This document shows, piece after piece, positions 7,513 to 43,499 of a DNA stretch of 64,000 bases. The stretch covers positions 8,828-72,827 of the IMG/VR virus record IMGVR_UViG_3300031938_000001; one strand, 5' to 3'. Position 1 is the stretch's first letter. The number at the start of each line of letters is the position of its first letter. The translations under genes were made by a program, and so were the position numbers. The notes below the pieces were generated by a model, which was given only the letters and a program-made list of their open reading frames with translations, made no database searches and had not been told where the DNA came from. The DNA comes from a virus. Its lineage: Duplodnaviria > Caudoviricetes.

Positions 7513-8862
7513 GTGAGCACCGAGGTTTGGTTCAGGAATCCGGACCTCTACATCCGAGAGATAGTAGAGGTTGGAGTCGAGCGCATTGCCATCGACCGGG
7601 GGTATGCCGTCAAGCGGCGCATCGACCCGGTGCGCTTCGCGACCCTCTACTACCCCAAGACCACCGACTTTCGCATCCTCATGGTGGGCGATCAAGGCAC
7701 CGCCGAGTATCGCCGTGGCGACGCCCTCGACAAGCCGACCGGCGTCTACCCCACGTGGGACTACACCGCCGAGGATCTCACCGTCCTCGAGGAGTTGATG
7801 GCGAAGCCGGTCGGCCACGACCCGGCCATCTGTGCCGACGACAGCGTGCCCCCCGACGAGCGCCCGGTACTCGGGCAGGAGCATCGGGTGGTTGTCATCC
7901 GCCTCCCCATCGCCTCGTCCGGTCCCGGCCGCCGGGTGCTGCACCAACTCAGCGACCTGCAGCGCGACTACCCCGACTGCATCTTGCACATCCACGGGCT
8001 CTACGGGTTCCGGCCGGCCTTCAGTAACGGGTTCGGCGCCGTGGACATCGAGGCGCGCACCACCGCCGCCAAGGGCAAGGTGATCCTGCCGAACGGCAAG
8101 GAACTCCGGCACGAGATGACCGCGAAGGTCCCCGACTGGGTGACCCTGCTCGGGATGTCGCCTGTCGATCTTGAGCAGCCGCGAAACAGGTGCATGTATA
8201 TCATCAGATCAGCCCTCTGGGCTGGCGAGAACTTCACGAAGGACCTCAAGTTTCGCGTCAAGGGTGGGGTCACGGTAGACCCCGACGCCGCTACCCCGAC
8301 CGCCGCGACGGTCGCCCACTATCGGTCCGGCACGTCCGTGGTCAAGCCCGGCGACAAGTTCGCGTGCGACTCATGCTCGCTGGCCGACACCTGCAAGTAC
8401 TACCGGGAAGGATCGGTGTGCACCGTGCCCGACGCCGAATCGAGCGAACTGGTCCGTATGTTCCGCACTCGCGACGCCGAGCGGATCATTGACGGACTCA
8501 ACTCCGTACTCGCCAAGCAGGCCGAGCGTCTCGAGCGTGGCGTCGAGGAGGAGGAGGAGTTCAATGAACTCTCCCCCGAGGTCACCAAGATCATCAACTC
8601 CCTGATGACCCACGGCGTGAAACTCGCCAAGCTGATCAACCCAGCCCTCAACGGCGGCCCCAAGGTGGGCGTGTTCGTCGCTGGAGGTCACGCTGCGGGG
8701 AGTACCAACCCCAAGGCGGCTATCGCTGGCGTGGTGGCCGAACTCGAGGCGCAGGGCATCCCCCGCGAGCGCATCACCGAGGAGATGATCATCCGCGTGC
8801 TGTCCGGCGGACCGAGCAAGGAGATCGTCGCCAGCGTGGCGACGGAGGTGCGCGCGGGATGA
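7513..8862 (+). CDS. 449-aa protein in the terminase small-subunit position: possible TGT-like N-terminal domain, Cys4 cluster, helical C-terminus
   Basis: Directly upstream of TerL with ATGA overlap; LHIHGL...FGAVD...GKVILPNG; CDSCSLADTC...C; acidic coiled-coil. Confidence 0.55.
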   Translation: MSTEVWFRNPDLYIREIVEVGVERIAIDRGYAVKRRIDPVRFATLYYPKTTDFRILMVGDQGTAEYRRGDALDKPTGVYPTWDYTAEDLTVLEELMAKPVGHDPAICADDSVPPDERPVLGQEHRVVVIRLPIASSGPGRRVLHQLSDLQRDYPDCILHIHGLYGFRPAFSNGFGAVDIEARTTAAKGKVILPNGKELRHEMTAKVPDWVTLLGMSPVDLEQPRNRCMYIIRSALWAGENFTKDLKFRVKGGVTVDPDAATPTAATVAHYRSGTSVVKPGDKFACDSCSLADTCKYYREGSVCTVPDAESSELVRMFRTRDAERIIDGLNSVLAKQAERLERGVEEEEEFNELSPEVTKIINSLMTHGVKLAKLINPALNGGPKVGVFVAGGHAAGSTNPKAAIAGVVAELEAQGIPRERITEEMIIRVLSGGPSKEIVASVATEVRAG

Positions 8863-19403: not shown

Positions 19404-19943
19404 ATGAGCATTTCCCCAGAGGCTGTTGCCTCAGCAGAGTCCGCAATGCGCGAGGCTGGCGTTCCCACCCACGAGCGGGTGGCCGACGACTACTTCGGGT
19501 TTGAGGAGACGCACCGCGTCGCCCTCCCCGATGGCGTCTCGTTCATCGAGCACAAGACCCTCACCGAGGGTCAGCGGCGGAACTACCTCAACGGCATGAA
19601 CCGCGATGTCGTCATCCAGCGCGCGACGGGCGACGCCCGCATGCGGATGGCCCCCGGCGACGAGCGCTACAGCCTCCTCAAGACCGCCATCTCCGGATGG
19701 AACCTGCAGCGCAAGGGCGGCAAGGGCGACCTCGAGCCGGTGCAGTTCACGCCGGGCAACCTCGAGAAGTTCCTGCAGTCCGCGCCGCCCAAGATCATCG
19801 ACCTCATCGACAAGGAGGTCCGCAAGGTCAACGCATGGTTGATCGAGGACATGTCGGTCGAGGACATCGAGCGCGAGATCCAGACCCTGACCGAGCTCCG
19901 CGACAAGAAGCAGGAGGAGGAGGCGGGAAACGCCTCTTCGTAG
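19404..19943 (+). CDS. tail assembly chaperone (gpG-like)
   Basis: Position; GWNL motif; slippery heptamer near the 3' end. Confidence 0.8.
   Translation: MSISPEAVASAESAMREAGVPTHERVADDYFGFEETHRVALPDGVSFIEHKTLTEGQRRNYLNGMNRDVVIQRATGDARMRMAPGDERYSLLKTAISGWNLQRKGGKGDLEPVQFTPGNLEKFLQSAPPKIIDLIDKEVRKVNAWLIEDMSVEDIEREIQTLTELRDKKQEEEAGNASS
19925..19931 (+). other. -1 programmed frameshift site G GGA AAC
   Basis: In-frame X XXY YYZ heptamer; the -1 frame stays open to 20212. Confidence 0.8.
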
Positions 19944-38469: not shown

Positions 38470-39624
38470 CTAGTCGATGGGGTTCTTGGCAACTACCTTC
38501 ACCGACGGGTTGCCGGTCTTGTAGCCGACCAGTGCCTTGATGCGGTCCTCGGTGTCGGTGTCGAACACCTCGGACTTGAGCATCTTGTCCACGCTGGTCA
38601 TGGTGACGCCACCGTACTTCGCCATGAGGTCCGGGCCGATGATGGCCGCGAGCGAGTGCGGGTCGGTCACGGTGCGGGTGCGCCGGGCGCCGATGTTCAC
38701 CACGAACTCGTCATCCTCGTAGGTGTCCACGTCGTCGGCCTCGGCGGAGGCGAGGATGAACGAGTCGAGCTCTTCCATCACCTTCGCGAGCGCCTTTGAG
38801 CGCTGCTCCACCTCGGCGCGCTTCTTGGCCGCCAGCATTGGGTCGGCCAGCGACAGCACGCCACCGGCTTCGACGTGCTCGGTCAGCGCCTTGCAGACCT
38901 GCTTGCGGATGCACCACTGGCAGTCGGGATTGATCTTCTCCGGCACGTCATCCTCTGGCGTGGCGATGATCTTCTCGGCGGCTGCCTTGATGTAGCGCCA
39001 CGTCGCGAGGTTCTCCTCGCGGGTGAACACGATCCCCACCGGGTCGTAGCGCAGCAGGTCGAACGTCACCCACACGCGCGGGGCGTCGGGGTACTTGATC
39101 TGCGCCGCCACGGCATACGCACGAGCCTGAATGCGGTCCCGCAGCCCATCGGGCGCCAGCCGGGCGCGGATGCTCTTGTAGTCCACGACCTCGATTGAGC
39201 CATCCTCGTGCCGGTCGAGCCGGTCGAAGATGTAGTTGAAGATGATCTCACCAGCCGTGGTCTTGATGGCGAAGTTTTCCTTCGTCTCCAACTGGATGAT
39301 GTCGCGCTCGGCGAGGTCGGCGGAGCGCAAGAACCAGTTCTCCATCATCCGCAGCCCGTCGTGGCGAAGGTCGTCGCGCGACGTGCCGAACATCTCCGTG
39401 AAGGCGTTGTTGAAGATGGTGAGCAGGAGTTCGAGGCTGGGCGTGTCTGCCTTGTCGATGTAGACGCGCTGGACGTACTCCTGCAACGCGGTGTGACAGG
39501 TGGTGCCGAGGTCGGCCGCCCACCCGGACGGCATGGGGGTCTTGTGAAGCGTCTCGGCGGCATACCGCGCTGGGCAGGACTCCCACACCTGCAGGGCGGT
39601 GGCGGATAGTGACTTGGGGATCAC
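38470..39624 (-). CDS. Cas4/RecB-like PD-(D/E)XK exonuclease with Fe-S cysteines
   Basis: SLSATAL...CPARY, DRLD...VVDYKS, QxxxY-like QARAY, CQWCIRKQVC; GTG at 39624. Confidence 0.85.
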   Translation of the reverse strand: MIPKSLSATALQVWESCPARYAAETLHKTPMPSGWAADLGTTCHTALQEYVQRVYIDKADTPSLELLLTIFNNAFTEMFGTSRDDLRHDGLRMMENWFLRSADLAERDIIQLETKENFAIKTTAGEIIFNYIFDRLDRHEDGSIEVVDYKSIRARLAPDGLRDRIQARAYAVAAQIKYPDAPRVWVTFDLLRYDPVGIVFTREENLATWRYIKAAAEKIIATPEDDVPEKINPDCQWCIRKQVCKALTEHVEAGGVLSLADPMLAAKKRAEVEQRSKALAKVMEELDSFILASAEADDVDTYEDDEFVVNIGARRTRTVTDPHSLAAIIGPDLMAKYGGVTMTSVDKMLKSEVFDTDTEDRIKALVGYKTGNPSVKVVAKNPID

Positions 39625-39662: not shown

Positions 39663-39968
39663 CTATGCGGCGGGTCCGACATCGCTGGGCTGCTGCTGCC
39701 CGTCGATGGGGACTCGTCTCTTGCGGGGGACAATGCCGCCCCCCCACATGCCGTACTCACTGTCGGTGCGCTCTTGGTAGGAGCGGCACTCAAAGATTAC
39801 GGGGCATGTGGCGCAGACATTCCGGCCGGGCTTGTGCGACTGGCCGCGCTCAGGAAAGAACCACTCGGGATCGACTCCCGGCTTCCTGCACTCGGCCAGT
39901 CGCTGCCACGTGTCGTCCGATTCGAGAAAGAGGAATCGGGCGTGCGGAGCGTCTACGCCGGGGGAACT
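39663..39968 (-). CDS. whiB: WhiB-family transcription factor domain with no canonical start (not in the ORF track); predicted -1 frameshift extension of the upstream ORF
   Basis: Translated by hand: ...DTWQRLAECRKPGVDPEWFFPERGQSHKPGRNVCATCPVIFECRSYQERTDSEYGMWGGGIVPRKRR...*; four Cys (C-x24-C-x2-C-x5-C) plus GMWGG. Confidence 0.9.
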   Translation of the reverse strand, partial: SSPGVDAPHARFLFLESDDTWQRLAECRKPGVDPEWFFPERGQSHKPGRNVCATCPVIFECRSYQERTDSEYGMWGGGIVPRKRRVPIDGQQQPSDVGPAA

Positions 39969-40279
39969 TTTCCCGAGCGTCCGGTGGGCGCCGCCTCGGA
40001 GGATGCAGCCTCGGCCTTGTCGCCCAGCCCGAGCGGGAGCACCATCTGGCCGGGGACCTGCTCGTCGTCGTCGGCCGGGGTGGTGATGCCCGCCTCGGGA
40101 TTCTCCGTCAACGACGCCTCTGCGATGCTCTCGACGGTGGCGAGGTCAGCCGGCGAGGGCTCTGCCATCTCGAACAGGGCGTCAGGGTTGGTGGGTCGGG
40201 GGCTGAAGTCGGTGACGCCGTGGGGAACGACGTTGCCGTCGAAGAAGGTGACGGGGTGAACCGTCCGAACTTCGGTCAT
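39953..40279 (-). CDS. 108-aa acidic, probably disordered protein (N-terminal partner of the WhiB frame)
   Basis: RBS-like gaaagg before ATG; ends ...GRSGKVPPA*. Confidence 0.75.
   Translation of the reverse strand: MTEVRTVHPVTFFDGNVVPHGVTDFSPRPTNPDALFEMAEPSPADLATVESIAEASLTENPEAGITTPADDDEQVPGQMVLPLGLGDKAEAASSEAAPTGRSGKVPPA
39968..39974 (-). other. candidate -1 frameshift heptamer G GGA AAA
   Basis: In frame at codons 103-104 of ORF 39953..40279; the -1 frame is the WhiB frame. Confidence 0.7.
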
Positions 40280-40342: not shown

Positions 40343-41047
40343 TCAAACGAACAGGGTATCCATCTCCAGCCGGTTTCGGCTGTGTCGAACATGGTCGGCG
40401 TCCAACTCGATGCCGATAGAGTTGAGGCCCAACTGCTGAGCCGCCTTGGAGGAACTGCCAGACCCGCTGAACGGGTCCACGACGAGATCGCCGGGGTTGG
40501 TGCTGATCTTGAGGAGCTCTTCGAGGAGCGGGACGGGCTTCTCAGTCGGGTGGATGATCTTCGAAGGGGGAACCTTCTCGTAGTTGAGCACTCCCGAGCG
40601 CCGGTATGGCACCTTGCGCAGGCCCTTCTTGGCGTAGAGGATCAACTCGTGGCCGCAGCCCCAGTTGGAGTCGATGTCCCCGGTGCCGGGCTCCATCTTG
40701 TTCCAGATGAGCATCATCTTGTACTTGAACCCATGCCGGGACAGCGAGCGCACGGCGTCGATCCAGTCGCCCACGATGTCCCAGCGGGTGAACACGTACA
40801 GTTCCGCCTCGTCAGCGCACTTGGGCAGCACCACGTCCATCACGTCTTGGAACAGCCCGAGCGCCCCGGTGAGGTCGAGGTCGTTCGCCACGTCCTTGAC
40901 CCAGCGCAGACCCTCGGGGGTGGTCGCGTGCCGCGAGCGGTAGTTGACCCCGTACGGCGGGTCGGTCAGGACGCACTTGATCTCACCCTCGATGTTGTGG
41001 CCCAACTCGAGGCTGTCTCCGTGCCAGATTTCGTTGGTCGTCATCAT
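40343..41047 (-). CDS. DNA amino-methyltransferase (N6-A/N4-C, beta-type motif order)
   Basis: TDPPYG precedes HPTEKP and VVDPFSGSGS. Confidence 0.92.
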   Translation of the reverse strand: MMTTNEIWHGDSLELGHNIEGEIKCVLTDPPYGVNYRSRHATTPEGLRWVKDVANDLDLTGALGLFQDVMDVVLPKCADEAELYVFTRWDIVGDWIDAVRSLSRHGFKYKMMLIWNKMEPGTGDIDSNWGCGHELILYAKKGLRKVPYRRSGVLNYEKVPPSKIIHPTEKPVPLLEELLKISTNPGDLVVDPFSGSGSSSKAAQQLGLNSIGIELDADHVRHSRNRLEMDTLFV

Positions 41048-41376
41048 CTTCCTCCGAGGGTCGGATAGTCGGCAAAGTCGGGCGGAGAGCACTCATGACT
41101 GTGTATCTCGGAACACTCGGGGCACACGAAGGTCATGCTCGGCTTCGCACCCACGAGGGTGATGCTGGCAGGCATGATCTCGAGGTGAAGGGTCGCCCAG
41201 CCCGTTGCCTCGATACTGAGGTTCAGGGCGTGGATGTTGTGGACGATCTCGCCATTGGAGTCATACACGCGAGTGCCGTGCGTGGTGCCGTCGGTGAACA
41301 CCCGCCAGTCGCCACGGGCGTTGGCGGTGTCCATGGACGACTCGGGGGCGTCGGGGATCGGGTCGGCGATGTCCAT
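41044..41376 (-). CDS. hypothetical protein with a C-terminal Zn knuckle
   Basis: ATG overlaps the upstream stop (TGATG); CPEC...H.HEC. Confidence 0.65.
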   Translation of the reverse strand: MDIADPIPDAPESSMDTANARGDWRVFTDGTTHGTRVYDSNGEIVHNIHALNLSIEATGWATLHLEIMPASITLVGAKPSMTFVCPECSEIHSHECSPPDFADYPTLGGR

Positions 41377-42329: not shown

Positions 42330-43499
42330 TCACTCCGCCACCGGACCCACGTCGGTCTTGCGACGGGGCATGAGCCACGACTCGAACCCGAGCCCGTCCC
42401 ACACCTTCACCGGCACGCCGTTGCGGTCGGTGCGGTAGCCGAGGCTCACGGTGTCGGTGCGCGGCTGGTCGAGGCAGTCGGTGATGGTGGTCGGCGTGAA
42501 GTGGATGACGAACTCCTCGGGGGCGCCCTCCTCCTCGATGGCGGGGTGGGCAACCGTCTCGGTGGAGATGTCCACCTCGTCGGTCATGGTGCCCACCGAG
42601 GGGACGGTCATCTCGAGGTAGATCGTGTCGGGCGTGAAGGTGCACGTCACGATGGGGTAGCGCTCGCCCTTGGCGATGAGCCCGGTCATGCGGGTGAGCG
42701 CCTCGCGGAGCCGGATGCGCGGGGCGGTGACGACCCGGTTGAAGATCGTCGCGTCCATGATCTTCTCGATGTTGGGGTAGCCCATGTCGTAGATGATGGC
42801 CCTCATCTGCGTGTACTCGTCCGGCATGATGAGGACGTAGTTCGGGTTGGCCCCGAGGCGCACGTCCTCGACGCTCTTGAGGATCGGGCCGAGGGTGTCC
42901 ATCGGCACGGTCACGGGGGCTTCCAGCGCCGCGTCGCACGGGGTCCGCACGAGCCGGTACTTGTCGGTGGCGAAGATGTGCGTGCCGGTGAGGTGGATGC
43001 CGCTGAACGGCACGGCATCCTTGTCGCAGGCCCACGCCGCCTGTGCCACGCGAGCCGGGAAGTCCTTCACGTCGTGCAGGGCGTCCGGGTCGAACGGCTC
43101 CCACCGCTTGTAGGAGTCGGCCTTCATGACATTGATCGACGCCTTGGCCTTGCCGCTGCGGAGCATGATGTTGCCACCGTGGTCCTCGCGGGTGATCGTG
43201 ACGGTCTTGCCGCTGCCGATGGGCATCCCGGCGCAGAACCCAGCAAAGATGCTCGACGGCAGGCGCCAGTCGAAGTCCTCGTCGCTGTGGATCTCGAGCG
43301 GCTGAACCCACTCGAGGTAGTCCACCTCGAGGTTGGTCGCCTTGATGGTGATCTGGCGGCCCGGCTCGGCGAACGGGCGACCCTCGATGAGGATGCCCGC
43401 CGCCTTGTCGAACGCCATGCCCTTGCTCGGGGCAACGCGAGCCGCCTTGCCGACCGCCGACGCGAGGCCGGCTGTCTCGAACGTGACTGAGATGGTCAT
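42330..43499 (-). CDS. dnaN: DNA polymerase III beta sliding clamp
   Basis: 389 aa; ATNLE, ATDKYRL, GYPN and C-terminal LMPRR motifs. Confidence 0.85.
   Translation of the reverse strand: MTISVTFETAGLASAVGKAARVAPSKGMAFDKAAGILIEGRPFAEPGRQITIKATNLEVDYLEWVQPLEIHSDEDFDWRLPSSIFAGFCAGMPIGSGKTVTITREDHGGNIMLRSGKAKASINVMKADSYKRWEPFDPDALHDVKDFPARVAQAAWACDKDAVPFSGIHLTGTHIFATDKYRLVRTPCDAALEAPVTVPMDTLGPILKSVEDVRLGANPNYVLIMPDEYTQMRAIIYDMGYPNIEKIMDATIFNRVVTAPRIRLREALTRMTGLIAKGERYPIVTCTFTPDTIYLEMTVPSVGTMTDEVDISTETVAHPAIEEEGAPEEFVIHFTPTTITDCLDQPRTDTVSLGYRTDRNGVPVKVWDGLGFESWLMPRRKTDVGPVAE

Follow-up and report, generated by a model that had tools for sequence, protein, structure and literature searches.

Evidence for a conserved programmed -1 frameshift joining an acidic phage protein to a start-less WhiB domain

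We found that a locus in an uncultivated phage is probably a conserved programmed -1 ribosomal frameshift site, from which one gene would give a 108-amino-acid protein and a 205-amino-acid WhiB fusion. The locus lies on the minus strand of a 64,000-nucleotide stretch (the window; positions 8,828 to 72,827 of IMG/VR record IMGVR_UViG_3300031938_000001, Caudoviricetes). The source genome is a single 72.8-kb contig with 65.6% G+C from a soil metagenome assembly. All positions below are those of the window, unless a locus label (L001 and so on) is given. We infer slippage from the layout of the locus, its conservation, selection on the slippery heptamer and a switch in the coding signal.

In the proposed mechanism, ribosomes would initiate at the ATG at 40279 of the upstream open reading frame (ORF108). 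The majority would read GGA AAA GTT CCC CCG GCG to the TAG stop codon, producing a 108-amino-acid acidic protein that ends in GKVPPA. On some ribosomes, the tRNA-Gly and tRNA-Lys paired with G GGA AAA would re-pair with GGG AAA, one base back. These ribosomes would go on with AGT TCC CCC GGC GTA and so on, giving a 205-amino-acid protein with the same 104 N-terminal residues and a complete WhiB-like [4Fe-4S] regulator domain. Through the N-terminal module that they share, both products would have the same partner, which could allow the 108-amino-acid form to modulate the WhiB fusion or to compete with it.

The WhiB frame lacks a start codon and would be entered by a -1 shift at a slippery heptamer

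ORF108 ends in TCG GGA AAA GTT CCC CCG GCG TAG. One base out of phase with it, the WhiB frame is open from 40145 to 39666. This frame contains no ATG, GTG or TTG between its upstream stop codon (TGA, 40148-40146) and a point beyond the fourth cysteine codon. The first such codon in the stop-to-stop frame is the ATG at 39749, which encodes the M of GMWGG and lies 3' of all four cysteines. By inspection of the sequence, there is no Shine-Dalgarno sequence in front of the WhiB part. ORF108 contains an in-phase G GGA AAA, and the -1 frame of this heptamer is the WhiB frame. GGGAAAA occurs only once in the window, counting both strands. The predicted products are 108 and 205 amino acids long, the latter made of 104 zero-frame and 101 -1-frame residues. 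An earlier reading of the letters alone (the original prediction) had proposed a start-less WhiB frame without a Shine-Dalgarno sequence, a heptamer leading into it by a -1 shift, and these two product lengths. All of this was borne out, except that it had placed the upstream stop codon of the WhiB frame at about 40193.

The domain in the -1 frame is a member of the WhiB-like (Wbl) family, and its completeness, also part of the original prediction, was confirmed. Residues 80-144 of the frame match Pfam PF02467 with 53 bits (E = 5e-14), above the curated cut-off of 23.6, and the part matches PHROG 472 with E = 8.8e-16. It carries the signature C-x24-C-x2-C-x5-C, then GMWGG (a G[VIM]WGG turn) and a PRKRR patch. 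When residues are numbered from the heptamer, 21-87 align with 17-80 of a Streptomyces WhiB of known structure (8dy9_H; E = 1.4e-12). Judged by this alignment, the junction of the two frames would sit at about the start position of a free-standing WhiB.

The coding signal changes sides at the heptamer. On its upstream side, the frame of ORF108 has a G+C content at third codon positions (GC3) of 0.87, against 0.51 for the WhiB frame. On its downstream side, GC3 is 0.78 for the WhiB frame, against 0.67 and 0.53 for the other two frames. The switch of coding frame is therefore located at the heptamer or very close to it.

The heptamer is written in rare codons. In the window genome, AAA makes up 4% of lysine codons and GGA 11% of glycine codons, and with this usage the chance that Gly-Lys would be written as GGA AAA is ~0.004. 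Because these codons are rare, an invariant GGA AAA is not explained by protein coding.

The heptamer is conserved in nine lineages

We identified a clade of nine lineages, all uncultivated, with the same arrangement (window, L019, L020/21, L022, L023/24, L026, L027, L028 and L036, where L numbers are our labels for loci). Relatives were found by searches with the neighboring Cas4-family exonuclease, which is 50-72% identical across the clade; L019, an ENA contig with a 96-residue homologue, was found with ORF108. Other searches gave no match. These were a nucleotide search of the locus against 50,697 phage records (nothing near or distant), tblastn of ORF108 against phages, and a scan of JGI metagenomes with an alignment of ORF108. 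A scan of IMG/VR found neither ORF108 nor the exact 24-nucleotide site, and with the WhiB part only generic WhiBs.

Gene order is common to all nine lineages: a methylase, an acidic ORF of ~90-160 amino acids ending in [G/P]KVPPA, a start-less WhiB in the -1 frame, and Cas4. In each of them (9/9), a canonical heptamer lies in frame exactly 12 nucleotides ahead of the zero-frame stop codon. Eight lineages carry it as G GGA AAA. L023 has C CCA AAA, so that the residue has changed from Gly to Pro and the X XXA AAA slippery pattern is retained. The codons 3' of the heptamer drift (GTT, GTA, GTC or GCA; CCC, CCT, CCA, CCG or GCC; GCG, GCC or GCT), and the stop codon is TAG or TGA. The slippery heptamer is conserved beyond the need of protein coding, with rare codons fixed and neighboring codons varying synonymously across the nine lineages. 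These comparisons show that the heptamer is under selection at the nucleotide level.

The position at which the -1 frame can be entered is narrow. This frame is closed by a stop codon three codons upstream of the heptamer in L023 and seven codons upstream in L019. Entry is therefore limited to a few codons that contain the heptamer. From the heptamer onward, the -1 products of the clade align with each other (GKSSPGV, then A.F...W..LAAC and the WhiB domain) at 41-70% identity. Alignment of relatives had been suggested as a test in the original prediction, and the heptamer, the -1 register and the missing start were all conserved in the eight further lineages.

We also looked for homologues in which the two parts are fused in frame. 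Among 1.84 billion representative proteins, a profile made from the upstream ORFs matched only 12, of 87-152 amino acids, and none of the 12 is an in-frame fusion, an arrangement that the original prediction had named as counting against it. The further ORF108 homologues end in SGKVPPA, KGKVPPA or APKVPPA; for the last (P0127), a C CCA AAA heptamer would be expected.

No conserved stimulatory element was found

Frameshift sites of the tandem-slippage -1 type commonly, but not obligatorily, have a stimulatory element. The original prediction had pointed to a GGCGT/ACGCC stem, and speculatively a pseudoknot, downstream of the heptamer. The stem is present in the minimum-energy fold, but this idea did not hold up: its stability is no better than that of shuffled sequence (z score -0.6), and it is not conserved in the relatives. 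Folds of single sequences from the clade were mostly no better than shuffles (z about -1.5 to +0.9, except L026 and L020). RNAalifold on eight lineages gave no consensus downstream structure, only three pairs that involve the heptamer itself, and no consensus structure was found in the distant clade described below. Likewise, there was no consistent Shine-Dalgarno-like element upstream of the sites in the window clade.

Two other sites at the junction were considered and rejected. One is a second slip site in the run of five C residues (CCC CCG), which is not conserved: relatives read CCT CCG and CCA CCG. The other is initiation at the CTG at 39899, which is not conserved either (the corresponding residues are DDAEC in L020 and KYAAC in L026); starting there would remove the conserved tryptophan.

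Alternative explanations and points of doubt

The WhiB part might be translated by itself, by initiation or reinitiation at a non-canonical codon that overlaps the ORF108 stop codon (GUA here), so that the two proteins would be coupled and unfused. In L025 and L026 a GTG does overlap the TGA of the upstream ORF (GTGA), which is a classic coupling arrangement, and in L027 and L028 the overlapping codon is CTG, a conceivable start. However, five of the eight entries in our codon table have GTA or TTA at this place, because their stop codon is TAG, and L036 has GTA too; neither is a known initiator. No Shine-Dalgarno sequence precedes the WhiB part. Self-initiation also leaves unexplained why rare GGA AAA or CCA AAA, with the matching preceding base, is fixed 12 nucleotides upstream while its neighbors drift. 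We consider this alternative decidedly unlikely. RNA polymerase rather than the ribosome might slip, in the A run, and the protein outcome would be the same with either mechanism. The heptamer does hold four A residues, but known transcriptional slippage needs runs of ~7-9 identical bases. The C CCU UUA of distant relatives has no such run and fits tandem tRNA slippage, and in every lineage the site keeps the X XXY YYZ phase with respect to the zero frame. Transcriptional slippage is, in our view, highly unlikely.

A decaying remnant, left after a WhiB gene lost its start codon, would account for the missing start and for nothing else that we observed. The domain is intact and its frame has a coding-like GC3. 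Moreover, across the lineages all four cysteines, a G[MIF]W[GA]G turn and the N-terminal A.F...W are kept, at 41-70% identity and without stop codons, making decay extremely unlikely. Finally, the split into two frames could come from a one-base error in the A4 or C5 run that broke a single 205-amino-acid ORF, the source being a metagenome assembly with homopolymer runs at the junction. Against this, eight other diverged assemblies from different samples and pipelines (ENA, Logan, JGI and IMG/VR) show the same two-frame layout, and no single-ORF homologue was present among the representative proteins. In addition, contigs of another soil sample, from soil DNA runs of low depth, are identical over 39890-40040, including both runs, with no indel. 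The probability of such an error is close to negligible.

Programmed frameshifting is the reading that we prefer, and several points weigh against it. Our confidence is fairly high and not higher because the evidence is entirely comparative. The lineages are related, and counting them overstates the number of independent events. No stimulator was found, so the efficiency may be low or may depend on an unrecognised element. In L026 a GTG overlaps the zero-frame TGA, and in L022 a GTG lies nine codons ahead of the conserved tryptophan; the WhiB part could be self-started in some relatives too. Conservation of the glycine and lysine residues could be partly at the protein level, given that the KVPPA tail is conserved, which would still leave the rare codons unexplained.

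One of these relatives has both signals. L026 (L026:1460-1480) contains G GGA AAA as well as the GTG overlapping TGA, and may make both fused and free WhiB.

A second type of site in phages of Gordonia, Rhodococcus and Tsukamurella

We found that deposited actinophages have a related arrangement. A tblastn search with the exonuclease gave 117 phage records, from Gordonia, Rhodococcus and Tsukamurella. We inspected 20 of these, representing ~13 genus-level lineages (Diabla, BirksAndSocks, Monty, Eggsie, BenoitCattle, BigShaq, Neoevie, Demosthenes, Austin, GTE7, TIN2, TIN4, ReqiDocB7, Reynauld, Kampe, GMA3, Gmala1, Perlina, Jumbo and Trogglehumper). In all 20, a -1 shift from the upstream ORF enters the WhiB frame, and the ORF contains an in-phase C CCU UUA or C CCA AAA (for example, the C CCT TTA at L001:2405-2411). 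In Kampe, GMA3, Gmala1 and Jumbo, no more than one codon of open -1 frame precedes the heptamer. The part of the -1 frame that separates slip site and WhiB domain in this distant clade encodes a conserved four-cysteine linker (C.G[IV]C ... C.CGEG), whose cysteine and glycine codons change synonymously from lineage to lineage. Substitutions in the overlap of Monty and Woes favor the -1 frame only mildly (e.g., 11 vs 6 synonymous of 24), and we do not rely on them.

The four-cysteine module was seen at L001:2405-2570 and at the homologous places in L007-L018, L032-L035 and L037-L051, and is absent from the window clade. This module could be a second metal site. UUA, the A-site codon of C CCU UUA, is the rarest leucine codon in these high-G+C genomes (0.4% of leucine codons in the window genome). 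In Streptomyces, the bldA-type tRNA decodes UUA. It is conceivable that UUA acts as a hungry codon and so influences slippage.

The same pattern was seen in an unbiased sample drawn from IMG/VR through Cas4 alone, which gave 13 loci with a WhiB domain upstream. Twelve of the 13 have an upstream ORF with an in-frame C CCU UUA or C CCA AAA and with the WhiB frame as its -1 frame; two of them (L041 and L046) are of the short type seen in the window. In the two lineages that lack a heptamer, a start codon takes its place: in L025 this is a GTG that overlaps TGA, and in L048 it is a TTG. This apparent complementarity of heptamer and start codon is the pattern expected of two alternative expression routes.

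The relationship between the two clades is distant. Their upstream ORFs have in common only a short N-terminal PV.F.G...DF.P motif, and the hhalign match is weak (E = 5.5e-4, probability 30%). We regard the loci as orthologous mainly on the basis of synteny, together with this motif. In the window, the ancestral slip position reads AAC CCT GAC. The slip position is lost there, and the site has thus shifted to the edge of the WhiB domain, where the cysteine linker is absent.

Features of the ORF108-WhiB locus and its neighbors

The coordinates of the proposed recoded gene and of the features around it are collected in Table 1.

Table 1. Features of the ORF108-WhiB locus and other features of the window
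Feature	Position	Strand	Remarks
ORF108, zero-frame gene	40279 (ATG) to 39955-39953 (TAG)	minus	108 aa, acidic
Slippery heptamer G GGA AAA (X XXY YYZ), in phase with ORF108	39974-39968	minus	12 nt ahead of the ORF108 stop; proposed place of tandem -1 tRNA slippage
Zero-frame stop TAG	39953..39955	minus	Four codons past the heptamer; placement kept in the clade as TAG or TGA
-1 continuation	39663..39967	minus	SSPGVDAPHARFLFLESDDTW.. then WhiB domain (4 Cys, GMWGG, PRKRR); TAG 39665-39663
Whole recoded gene	39663..40279	minus	Predicted p108 (zero frame) and p205 (104 zero-frame + 101 -1-frame residues)
Cas4-family PD-(D/E)XK exonuclease, downstream	38470..39624	minus	GTG start at 39624; synteny anchor for finding relatives
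N6/N4 DNA methylase, upstream	40343..41050	minus	Synteny partner in nearly all relatives
Tail assembly chaperone heptamer G GGA AAC	19925..19931	plus	9 nt before the stop; context only

Several features of ORF108 are recognizable. It has a conserved N-terminal PVTFFDG..TDFSPR motif, a helix at about residues 43-59, a QMVLPL motif and the conserved C-terminus GKVPPA. AlphaFold2 confidence was low for both ORF108 (predicted local distance difference test score, pLDDT, 61) and the WhiB part (pLDDT 56). Solved Wbl proteins bind an Fe-S cluster and region 4 of sigma-A. By analogy, the WhiB part would bind a [4Fe-4S] cluster and sigma-A region 4.

QMVLPL (40031-40048, minus strand) belongs to a motif that is conserved in the clade, with QMTLPL, QLELPL, QLALDL and QLVLDL in relatives, and it resembles the hexameric beta-clamp-binding consensus QLxLxL. 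A phage clamp homologue (PHROG 947, E = 1.4e-51) is encoded at 42333-43499, 2 kb upstream of the locus. In Monty, Woes and the TIN phages, QPSLF occurs in the zero-frame tail 3' of the heptamer.

The tail of the short product is also conserved. V-P-P-A-stop (39956-39967, minus strand; same place in L019-L036) is conserved at the protein level through synonymous codons, and the overlapping -1 residues vary (SSPGV, STSGL, SPSGL, SSTGL and SSAGV). From this pattern, it appears that either the tail of the short product or the Pro-Pro-Ala-stop context matters. The amino acids of the zero-frame KVPPA tail stay constant while its codons change synonymously, which suggests an independent role for the short product.

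In some relatives, WhiB is fused in frame to the Cas4-family exonuclease, with no intervening stop codon (L025:1801-3225, encoding P0033 of 474 amino acids; also P0069, P0109 and P0112). These fusions indicate a functional tie between the two neighboring genes.

Discussion

The predicted frameshift-made WhiB of this phage type is missed by public annotations. In the GenBank records that we checked (to 2025), WhiB is annotated as a 33-residue stub, as an internally started fragment or not at all, and no record has a joined coding sequence for a WhiB frameshift. Full-text literature searches found no publication on a frameshifted WhiB, of either the window or the Gordonia type, and none of the GenBank records checked describes one. 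The word frameshift is absent from a 2021 survey of actinophage WhiB genes (PMC8612146).

WhiB genes are mis-annotated in this way in well over a hundred deposited actinophage genomes, and surveys of phage WhiBs based on annotated proteins will under-count and truncate this group. Protein family resources are affected too. The match of phrog_11832 (33 positions, unknown function) to the WhiB part is confined to residues 54-77, and this family appears to have been built from the truncated 33-residue stubs that the annotations of Gordonia phages contain. phrog_6890, which carries the label 'endonuclease', corresponds to the acidic ORF upstream of WhiB in Gordonia-type phages, and we see no basis for the label.

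In practice, programmed frameshifts of tailed phages have been sought only in tail-chaperone genes. The WhiB site would be a second conserved recoding event in the same genomes, one that controls a transcription regulator. The slip site has moved within the gene, from C CCU UUA or C CCA AAA to G GGA AAA, with the two-product layout kept. This argues that selection maintains the pair of products and not WhiB alone. A fixed ratio of the transcription factor to a form deficient in DNA binding, as suggested in the original prediction, would be a putative consequence.

A more specific model is tentative and rather doubtful. The frameshift might set the ratio of two proteins that share a partner-binding module, one candidate being the QL.L.L clamp-binding motif (QMVLPL here). 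The 205-amino-acid form would tether WhiB to the replication clamp or to a different hub, of phage or host, with the 108-amino-acid form as its competitor. The slip rate would be tuned by the supply of rare-codon tRNAs (for AAA here, and for UUA in Gordonia phages). If tethering to the clamp were true, phage transcription would be coupled to replication, in the spirit of T4 late transcription. The cultivable Gordonia phages are a tractable system for the effect of the fused N-terminal module on Wbl function.

The locus resembles the G and GT tail assembly chaperones of lambda and actinophages. In each, the short upstream ORF holds an X XXY YYZ in its own frame only a few codons ahead of its stop codon, and the WhiB locus would likewise yield a short and a long product with a common N-terminus. 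The window phage uses GGGAAAN near a stop codon in its tail-chaperone frameshift too. As noted in the original prediction, there is a G GGA AAC at 19925; we found it in frame in a tail-chaperone-like ORF, 9 nucleotides before the stop codon and followed by a long -1 extension. That ORF is ~180 amino acids long, and the -1 frame adds an extension of ~95 amino acids that ends just before the tape measure gene. However, the WhiB locus is not a member of this family. It lies in the replication and recombination arm, between methylase and Cas4, whereas G/GT pairs stand between the genes for the major tail protein and the tape measure; the true G/GT pair is at ~19.4-20.2 kb. Its extension is a transcription-regulator domain, in contrast to the tape-measure-binding domain of GT. 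Annotation pipelines and curators look for a frameshift at the tail chaperones and not at the position of the WhiB locus.

Two bacterial systems are also alike in part. In IS3-family elements (IS911 and IS150), a -1 frameshift joins a small N-terminal protein (OrfA) to a second functional domain (OrfAB), and OrfA, which has the N-terminal binding module in common with OrfAB, modulates the latter. At IS3-family sites, A AAA AAG is usual, together with a structure downstream and in many cases a Shine-Dalgarno sequence upstream; we found no such stimulators at the WhiB locus, and the proteins are unrelated. In E. coli dnaX, as in our proposal, one gene gives two products (tau and gamma) in a set ratio by a -1 slip on lysine codons. 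However, the shifted frame of dnaX ends almost at once, making the frameshift product the shorter one, whereas the shifted frame in the window adds a whole domain. The dnaX stimulators, a Shine-Dalgarno sequence and a hairpin, were not seen at the WhiB locus.

Free-standing WhiBs (the WhiB of mycobacteriophage TM4, host WhiB1 and WhiB7, and Streptomyces WhiB) have the same four cysteines, G[VIM]WGG turn and basic C-terminal patch. They have their own start codon, ~5-20 residues before the conserved tryptophan; in contrast, the window WhiB has none and is predicted to carry a 104-residue acidic extension.

The closest likeness is to the proposed WhiB frameshift of the Gordonia, Rhodococcus and Tsukamurella phages (Monty, Woes, GTE7, TIN2, ReqiDocB7, Orchid and others). 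These have a methylase or RusA gene, an acidic ORF with PV.F.G..DF.P, a start-less WhiB in the -1 frame and Cas4, and the shift is in the same direction. In the Gordonia type, the slip site lies 58-91 codons before the first cysteine, the four-cysteine linker follows it, and the zero frame continues for 130-240 nucleotides. In contrast, the slip site of the window clade is at the edge of the WhiB domain, 12 nucleotides before the stop codon, there is no linker, and the whole acidic protein would be part of the fusion. The window site, beside the stop codon and without the four-cysteine linker, is a distinct variant.

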